From assembly GCA_963693365.1 (NCBI GenBank), contig CAVNZM010000005.1:8660334-8724333 (forward strand): a DNA stretch of 64,000 bases. Reading direction: 5' to 3'. The position numbers were made by a program, and so were the translations under genes. The notes beneath the pieces are model-generated. The model did not search any database, was not told the DNA's origin, and saw only the letters and a program-made list of their open reading frames with translations. The DNA comes from Amoebidium appalachense. Its lineage: Eukaryota; Protista; Ichthyosporea. Below, in pieces: positions 52,304 through 52,456 of this stretch; within the stretch, counting starts at the first letter, position 1; each line of letters begins with the position of its first letter.

Positions 52304-52456
52304 CATAAGCAACCCTGCTCGTCTTTGATCAAGACGGGTCGACCCTCCCAAGTTCAGTTGATGCTGCTGTCTGAGTTGGAGAGTCGTATGTACGCGGGCT
52401 AAGGGGTCGAAACTCAGACGGACTTGGGCCCTCCCTGAGGATGGGCTCTGCTTATG
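52304..52456 (+). ncRNA. Structured RNA motif copy B1 (ribozyme-like)
   Basis: Closing stem CAUAAGC/GCUUAUG; hairpin CUCGUCUU/AAGACGGG; GACCC/GGGUC; AGUC/GGCU; GUCUGAGUU/AACUCAGAC; conserved GAAA and CUGAGGA; covaries with copy A. Confidence 0.65.

Follow-up and report, generated by a model that had tools for sequence, protein, structure and literature searches.

A pseudoknotted hammerhead fold in strand order S-G-C, with a probably split CUGANGA block, in repeat units of an ichthyosporean genome

Cleavage by hammerhead ribozymes leaves 2′,3′-cyclic phosphate and 5′-OH ends. Types I, II and III present their core in the order C-G-S, where C is the strand with CUGANGA, G the strand with GAAA and S the strand with the cleavage site. 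Variants with additional helices reportedly exist, a point for which Weinberg et al. 2015 is cited elsewhere. The closest described system is the type-SGC hammerhead (HRIMA-1 and the SGC variant), which cleaves in vitro and, in the available text of Eckert et al. 2023, depends on a bracing helix for stems I and II and is found only in metatranscriptomes (PMC10085705). The same text assumes that the CUGANGA block is uninterruptible, finds it puzzling that stem III can reach the bracing helix with its far end, and describes a search pattern with linkers of at most 8 and at most 15 nt and with CUGAUGA(U)G followed by stem II (PMC10085705). A second point of comparison is offered by the Penelope-like elements Naiad and Chlamys, for which Craig et al. 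2021 report, in Chlamys, a preference for (C)n, partial tandems and non-autonomous head-to-tail copies. In the accessible part of that paper most Naiad and Chlamys elements have no canonical hammerhead, partial cores being flagged, and ichthyosporeans are absent from its named hosts, which are animals, slime molds and members of the green lineage (PMC8557442).

The stretch of DNA analysed here (the window) comprises 64,000 nucleotides of microsatellite-rich eukaryotic DNA from the ichthyosporean Amoebidium appalachense, and harbours three copies of a ribozyme-fold element of about 155–165 nt each. Copies B1 (52304–52456) and B2 (52748–52908) lie on the plus strand in a repeat with a 444-nt period and 94.7% identity. 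Copy A (1959–1804, minus strand) is diverged and complete, with GUU from 1892, GAAA from 1860 and CUGAUGA from 1825. The GUU is intact in B1, which has an 8-nt deletion that removes the bulged strand of a putative kink-turn; B2 carries GUG at the cut site (52819–52821), as had been cautioned when the motif was first proposed. A covariance model built from A, B1 and B2 recognised no further copy within the window (the next match had E 0.29), and Rfam gave no match in the window at gathering score, with three weak and irrelevant matches by E-value around B. Each copy sits in a larger repeat unit. The upstream unit holding B1 (52210–52576, plus strand) lies between C-runs; the longer unit holding B2 (52577–53032, plus strand) is formed by a 77-nt head, found nowhere else in the window, a body and a C-run tail; and the unit holding copy A (1673–2100, minus strand) also lies between C-runs, its 5′ end being uncertain.

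All nucleotides of the hammerhead core (CUGANGA, GAAA and NUH) are present in A and B1, and B2 fails at its GUG. Stems I, II and III flank the core, with the A15.1-U16.1 and G10.1-C11.1 pairs. Read along B1 on the plus strand, the fold opens with an outer stem, P0, whose 5′ strand (52304–52310) pairs with 52450–52456 and has changed on both sides in A at three of its seven pairs. The 5′ strand of helix J (52313–52315) pairs with 52443–52445, one U after A9, and hairpin H0 (52316–52340) comes next; the two helices are two of the arms in a proposed four-way junction. Helix J is invariant in A and B1, as is the stem of H0, so neither draws covariation support from the window. In every copy the loop region of H0 reads as a palindrome of 8 nt (52325–52332 in B1, about 1938–1931 on the minus strand in A). 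Two of its bases differ between A and B with the palindrome kept, as would be expected of a dimer contact, the change being a single event. Then follow the upstream 5′ strand of stem II, GACCC (52341–52345, with G10.1 at 52341), which pairs with GGGUC (52404–52408), and the 5′ strand of helix P (52347–52354), which pairs with 52421–52428; this helix has 8 bp in both B copies and 5 bp in A. Block S (52367–52381) holds one strand of stem III, GUU (52375–52377) and the stem I strand GGAG (52378–52381). Hairpin H1 (52382–52400), with one two-sided and one one-sided change, separates the stem I and stem II strands. Block G (52404–52421) contains the 3′ strand of stem II, GAAA (52409–52412) and the other strand of stem III. 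The block C region (52431–52449) contains CUCC (52431–52434), CUGAGGA (52435–52441), an extra U, the J strand and CUCU, and within it lies a rival strand for stem II, GGCUCU (52444–52449).

The positions originally assigned in B1 to GUU, GGAG, GAAA, CUCC, CUGAGGA, GACCC and GGGUC were all correct on re-examination, and the GUU and CUGAUGA announced for copy A were located, along with GAAA, on the minus strand. Stem III had been given too short a length: it runs to 10 bp in B1 and 9 bp in A, with three two-sided changes, and stem I has only 3–4 bp and no covariation. The strand order is S, G, C in all copies, which is that of type SGC; no GAAA was found within 250 nt after CUGANGA in any copy, so the C-G-S order of types I, II and III is not present here. 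By analogy with the published ribozymes, as far as their description was accessible, helix P would be the equivalent of the helix bracing stems I and II (PMC10085705). Spacings agree with the published alignments that could be compared, one nucleotide between stem II and P and 2 to 4 between P and stem I (PMC10085705).

That these copies preserve a fold is indicated by three kinds of evidence. In an alignment of the copies, a pseudoknotted structure of 41 pairs is paired in 121 of 122 cells, and 8 of the 41 pairs have changed on both sides (three in P0, three in stem III, one each in stem II and H1), although the three rows represent only two independent lineages. None of 500 shuffles scored as high, and control structures slid along the alignment reached at most 2; helix P stands outside this count, the automatic alignment being out of register there. 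Similarity between A and B is concentrated in the core (z 11.8); it is weak in the 3′ flank (z 2.4, 5 of 300 shuffles) and absent from the 5′ flank (z 1.3). Lastly, a descriptor of the S-G-C arrangement, composed after the motif had been seen, picked out copies A and B1 in the window and had a single match in order-2 simulated sequence totalling 52.5 Mb, an expectation of 0.0024 per window, and no simulated match had a stem III of 9 bp or longer. A conserved fold of hammerhead derivation is almost certain on these grounds. The structured RNA is real and well supported, and it is a variant of the hammerhead rather than a new class. The original prediction of a pseudoknotted hammerhead core whose strand order is no circular permutation is supported. 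Of the two ways in which it suggested that such an order could work, a pseudoknot or assembly in trans between copies, the assembly is not required, because copy A is solitary and complete; pairing of B1 with B2 in trans is possible on paper and unnecessary.

Two strands are able to pair with the stem II strand before GAAA. With the upstream strand (52341–52345) all five pairs are Watson-Crick, and one of them has changed on both sides. With the downstream strand (52444–52449) all six pairs form in each of the three copies, two or three of them being G-U and none changed on both sides, and a 2-nt insertion follows A9. The upstream pairing is favoured, and with it the CUGANGA block is split between A9 and G10.1. 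In rough energies the split fold is lower in B1 (−61.4 against −56.6) and in B2 (−62.6 against −56.2), and the two folds are nearly equal in A (−52.2 against −52.5). On the window alone the split fold would be a tentative reading, somewhat short of even odds. The alternative is an ordinary type-SGC ribozyme with a 2-nt insertion after A9, in which GGCUCU forms stem II and the leader acts as an off-switch or competing strand in a two-state switch. In its favour are the complete downstream pairing, an invariance that the split fold leaves unexplained, and the energy tie in A. Insertions of 1–2 nt at the A9 site are within the limits documented in the accessible part of Eckert et al. (PMC10085705), a G-to-U change in B2 at the second inserted base would be harmless in the downstream fold, and in A and B1 a helix of 4–5 bp, in which bases preceding stem I pair with bases that follow GGCUCU, could take the place of the bracing helix. 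A short alternative helix (52426–52429 with 52450–52453, and the matching bases of A) could complete a leader-free fold of the ordinary SGC kind; the leader can pair with each strand of that fold, which hints at a switch. Set against the ordinary fold are the missing two-sided change and the G-U pairs, a cost of 5–6 kcal/mol in B1 and B2, and a covarying upstream strand that it does not explain.

The tails of Naiad elements bear on the same question. They were compared by eye from the displayed portion of the supplement of PMC8557442, with names taken from the order of the file. Three Acropora and two octopus tails share the helix order found here: J and H0 come first, then an upstream stem II of 6 bp and P, and last stem III, GUA and stem I, one Acropora copy having one mismatch in the upstream stem II. 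The bases after CUGAUGA are unable to form stem II in the Acropora and octopus tails inspected, so that, as far as these can be judged by eye, the ordinary SGC fold is impossible in all five and only the split fold fits there (PMC8557442). The base of H0 carries the letters UGCUC/GGGU in Acropora, as in the present copies, and a kink-turn is seen in the octopus tails and not in those of Acropora (PMC8557442). Among six more tails, chosen because the authors flag half a core in them, one from a squid matches the split form but for an imperfect stem II, the ordinary C-then-G order is seen in three, and the displayed part of the other two shows no core. In total, the split fold is seen in 6 of the 11 Naiad tails viewed, out of 54 in the list, and in two or three lineages, a proportion that is not an estimate of frequency because five were picked up by a motif search (PMC8557442). 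The three half-core Naiads of ordinary order have CUGANGA followed by GAAA and a long loop on stem II (PMC8557442), and Naiads seem, from this sample, to carry more than one hammerhead form. As for Chlamys, four of the five tails shown end in an AAC-run like that of B1 and B2, and none of the five shows this core by eye (PMC8557442). With the Naiad tails considered, the split fold is probably the one that works in the RNA, and the ordinary type-SGC alternative is unlikely.

Compared with the type-SGC ribozymes, as documented in the text at hand, the split fold shares the S-G-C order, all core nucleotides, the extra U after A9, the pseudoknotted stems I and II and the short links from stems II and I into the bracing helix. 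It differs in bringing the 5′ strand of stem II to the 5′ end together with a bracing strand, which divides the CUGANGA block; in the added P0, J, H0, H1 and likely kink-turn; in size (about 155 nt, compared with at most 104 nt); and in its host, a eukaryotic genome rather than metatranscriptomes alone. The published descriptor, in the form available, would miss such a fold because of its linker limits and its stem II placed directly after CUGAUGA(U)G. The PK hammerhead (Zhan et al. 2024), as accessible, is likewise natural and keeps the core with an added helix and a pseudoknot; there the pseudoknot replaces most of stem II past G10.1-C11.1, and the A9-G10.1 link is intact (PMC11300833). Non-LTR retrozymes, in the portions seen of PMC7229834 and bioRxiv 10.64898/2026.07.22.740005, are alike in being small non-coding tandems with one hammerhead per unit, cut to unit length, and differ in that they carry type I hammerheads in animals, while the order here is non-circular and split. 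The architecture that was first proposed as new is so only in part: the order had been published as type SGC (PMC10085705), and what would be new is the probable split core, with GACCC/GGGUC upstream favoured of the two stem II options that the original prediction listed. The split form is not described in the literature searched on hammerhead variants and Penelope-like elements, which covered few subscription papers, so that an earlier report is possible; no split-core variant appears in the accessible portions of PMC3088659, PMC6765202, PMC13725137, PMC10162972 and PMC4209133.

A mechanism can be proposed for the split fold. The 5′ leader would supply the 5′ strand of stem II plus one strand of P, and P0 and J would hold it close to A9; J could then stack on H0, and stem II would keep its stacking on the core. 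Strands would then exchange between A9-U and G10.1 as in a stacked four-way junction, with the extra U as a spacer. Between stem III and P, the kink-turn consensus (a canonical stem, then a 3-nt bulge with tandem G.A/A.G, then a continuing helix) is found in A (GA at 1904–1903 and 1842–1841, minus strand) and in B2 (GA at 52804–52805 and 52870–52871, plus strand, with the 3-nt bulge); in B1 the bulged strand is gone with the 8-nt deletion. A likely kink-turn would bend stem III into the bracing helix, with modest support given that the test is loose and that shuffled loop strands pass it at 0.20 in A and 0.07 in B2. In A and B2 it would fold P back against stems I and II so as to clamp their ends, which is the job of the bracing helix. 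Cleavage is predicted after 52377 in B1 and after 1890 in A, by the usual hammerhead chemistry. Cutting of tandem read-through RNA after GUU would release unit-length RNA for the reverse transcriptase of a helper element, a role for such RNA that has been proposed for Penelope-like elements and retrozymes in the sources available, PMC4209133 among them.

Judging from sequence, at least one copy is likely to cut unaided. Only A is complete, since B1 lacks the kink-turn strand and B2 has GUG; A is therefore the best candidate for activity, and cleavage by B1 may be impaired. The contrary explanation accepts a real, hammerhead-derived fold and holds that it does not cut on its own, either because the copies are decayed or because a kink-turn protein or a dimer through the H0 loop is needed. 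The damage to B1 and B2 speaks for it, as do the two changed bases of an H0 loop that remained palindromic and the report, in the part of PMC4209133 available, that many Penelope hammerheads are poor or dimeric. So does the stability of competing structures, another caution of the original prediction that was confirmed: when B1 is folded without pseudoknots to minimum energy, CUGAGGA becomes buried in a hairpin, and the nested misfolds of the three copies (−60.5, −58.6 and −51.9) are about equal to the fold sums, which omit pseudoknot penalties; with these penalties neither the split nor the downstream fold beats the misfolds. On the other side, A retains all core bases and helices, the published SGC ribozymes cleave as monomers in the text available (PMC10085705), and the H0 loops of the Naiad tails inspected are not palindromic. 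This contrary explanation is unlikely.

The carrier of the ribozyme is, with high probability, a Penelope-like element. Downstream of C3, a C-run starts at a distance of 135, 135 and 136 nt in the respective copies, and 0.9% of positions lie 130–140 nt before such a run; C-runs stand at both ends of both loci, and are frequent in the window (115 and 107 by strand). The unit of B1 followed by the longer unit of B2 forms a partial tandem with a pseudo-LTR layout, at one locus only, in which unit 52210–52576 would be, by analogy with the elements described in the accessible part of PMC8557442, a 5′-truncated copy ending in a C-run. Neither of the two insertions starts at the predicted cut, the C-run lying 168 and 209 nt upstream. 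A tail with a truncated-plus-full tandem and poly-C ends is consistent with a non-autonomous element of the Naiad/Chlamys type. Targeting of microsatellites, truncated-plus-full tandems and non-autonomous copies are the likenesses to those elements as published; the difference is that the window has no coding partner, with no autonomous Penelope-like element (GIY-YIG plus reverse transcriptase) seen in its 64 kb. An exact-pattern scan for relatives, which recovers A and B1, found the helices in 0 of 95 loci (viral contigs 2, 0 and 9, the two hits of the first scan being one coding sequence; metagenome contigs 66; prokaryote genomes 18), a weak negative because these collections hold little eukaryotic DNA.

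Another carrier for the same ribozyme is improbable, be it a tandem of the retrozyme type, a viroid-like circle that became integrated, or a tyrosine-recombinase element that has the ribozyme as a passenger. Hammerhead tandem units of 150–450 bp are, in the literature consulted in part, typical of non-LTR retrozymes, the known SGC ribozymes come, in the available text, from metatranscriptome RNAs (PMC10085705), and C-runs are common in the window by the counts above. Yet animal retrozymes have themselves been argued, in the sources available, to stem from Penelope-like elements, and the Naiad tails inspected show the same fold by eye. A viroid-like rod was rejected, the circular monomer having an unexceptional structure (z −1.2) and the unit no antisense CUGANGA. 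A link between the ribozyme units and the tyrosine-recombinase element of the window was also rejected, with zero shared sequence and no hammerhead core seen in the repeats of that element. The last and weakest explanation, a chance juxtaposition of motifs that are indeed short, with just 3–4 bp in stem I, is refuted by the covariation, the contrast between core and flanks and the single match in 52.5 Mb of simulated DNA, and its probability is negligible.

Other features of the window deserve mention in their own right. The tyrosine-recombinase retrotransposon (30519–36208, minus strand) is young and has one frame of 1198 codons with the only reverse transcriptase in the window. Its split direct repeats comprise 35745–36208, identical to 30837–31300, and 31298–31601, about 94% like 30519–30821, and a phage-integrase domain is present in relatives at about 30% identity. 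It is flanked by two uninterrupted and divergent frames for GAPDH and class II aldolase, 28735–29832 (minus strand) and 36342–37439 (plus strand), the aldolase having its best named matches in Sphaeroforma arctica (79%) and CFRG (Creolimax; 78%), which on this one gene agrees with an ichthyosporean host. A duplication of 477 bp (37970–38446 and 41033–41509) is 99.6% identical, and the frame inside it has no Pfam match. Frames between 48067 and 49995 lack any Pfam match and have a start predicted to be leader-like, a short TGG/LNP tandem repeat and a piece rich in cysteine, and coding pieces of an HMG-box are split by repeat-rich introns at 55948–59473 (minus strand).

Taken together, a conserved fold with a full core in S-G-C order, likely split between A9 and G10.1, and carried in the tail of a non-autonomous element of the Naiad/Chlamys type, is a fairly probable reading of these sequences. 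The fuller proposal stands at about even odds: an active natural hammerhead would be opened at A9/G10.1 by a four-way junction, braced by a kink-turn and inherited in Naiad/Chlamys tails from animals to a unicellular holozoan, with the second stem II strand serving here as a switch. If the active reading holds, the split form is a permutation of four blocks that does not belong to the six hitherto considered possible. Should it be true, the CUGANGA block would prove separable from stem II, against what has been assumed, and the range of hammerhead topologies would widen. The kink-turn would offer a testable answer to the question of Eckert et al., as posed in the text available, of how stem III meets the bracing helix (PMC10085705), and the helix port at A9/G10.1 would be a new engineering site for switchable ribozymes. 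A true split fold would also explain how hammerheads in Naiad and Chlamys escaped descriptor searches, and would mean that a hammerhead of SGC order is encoded in the nucleus of a single-celled relative of animals.
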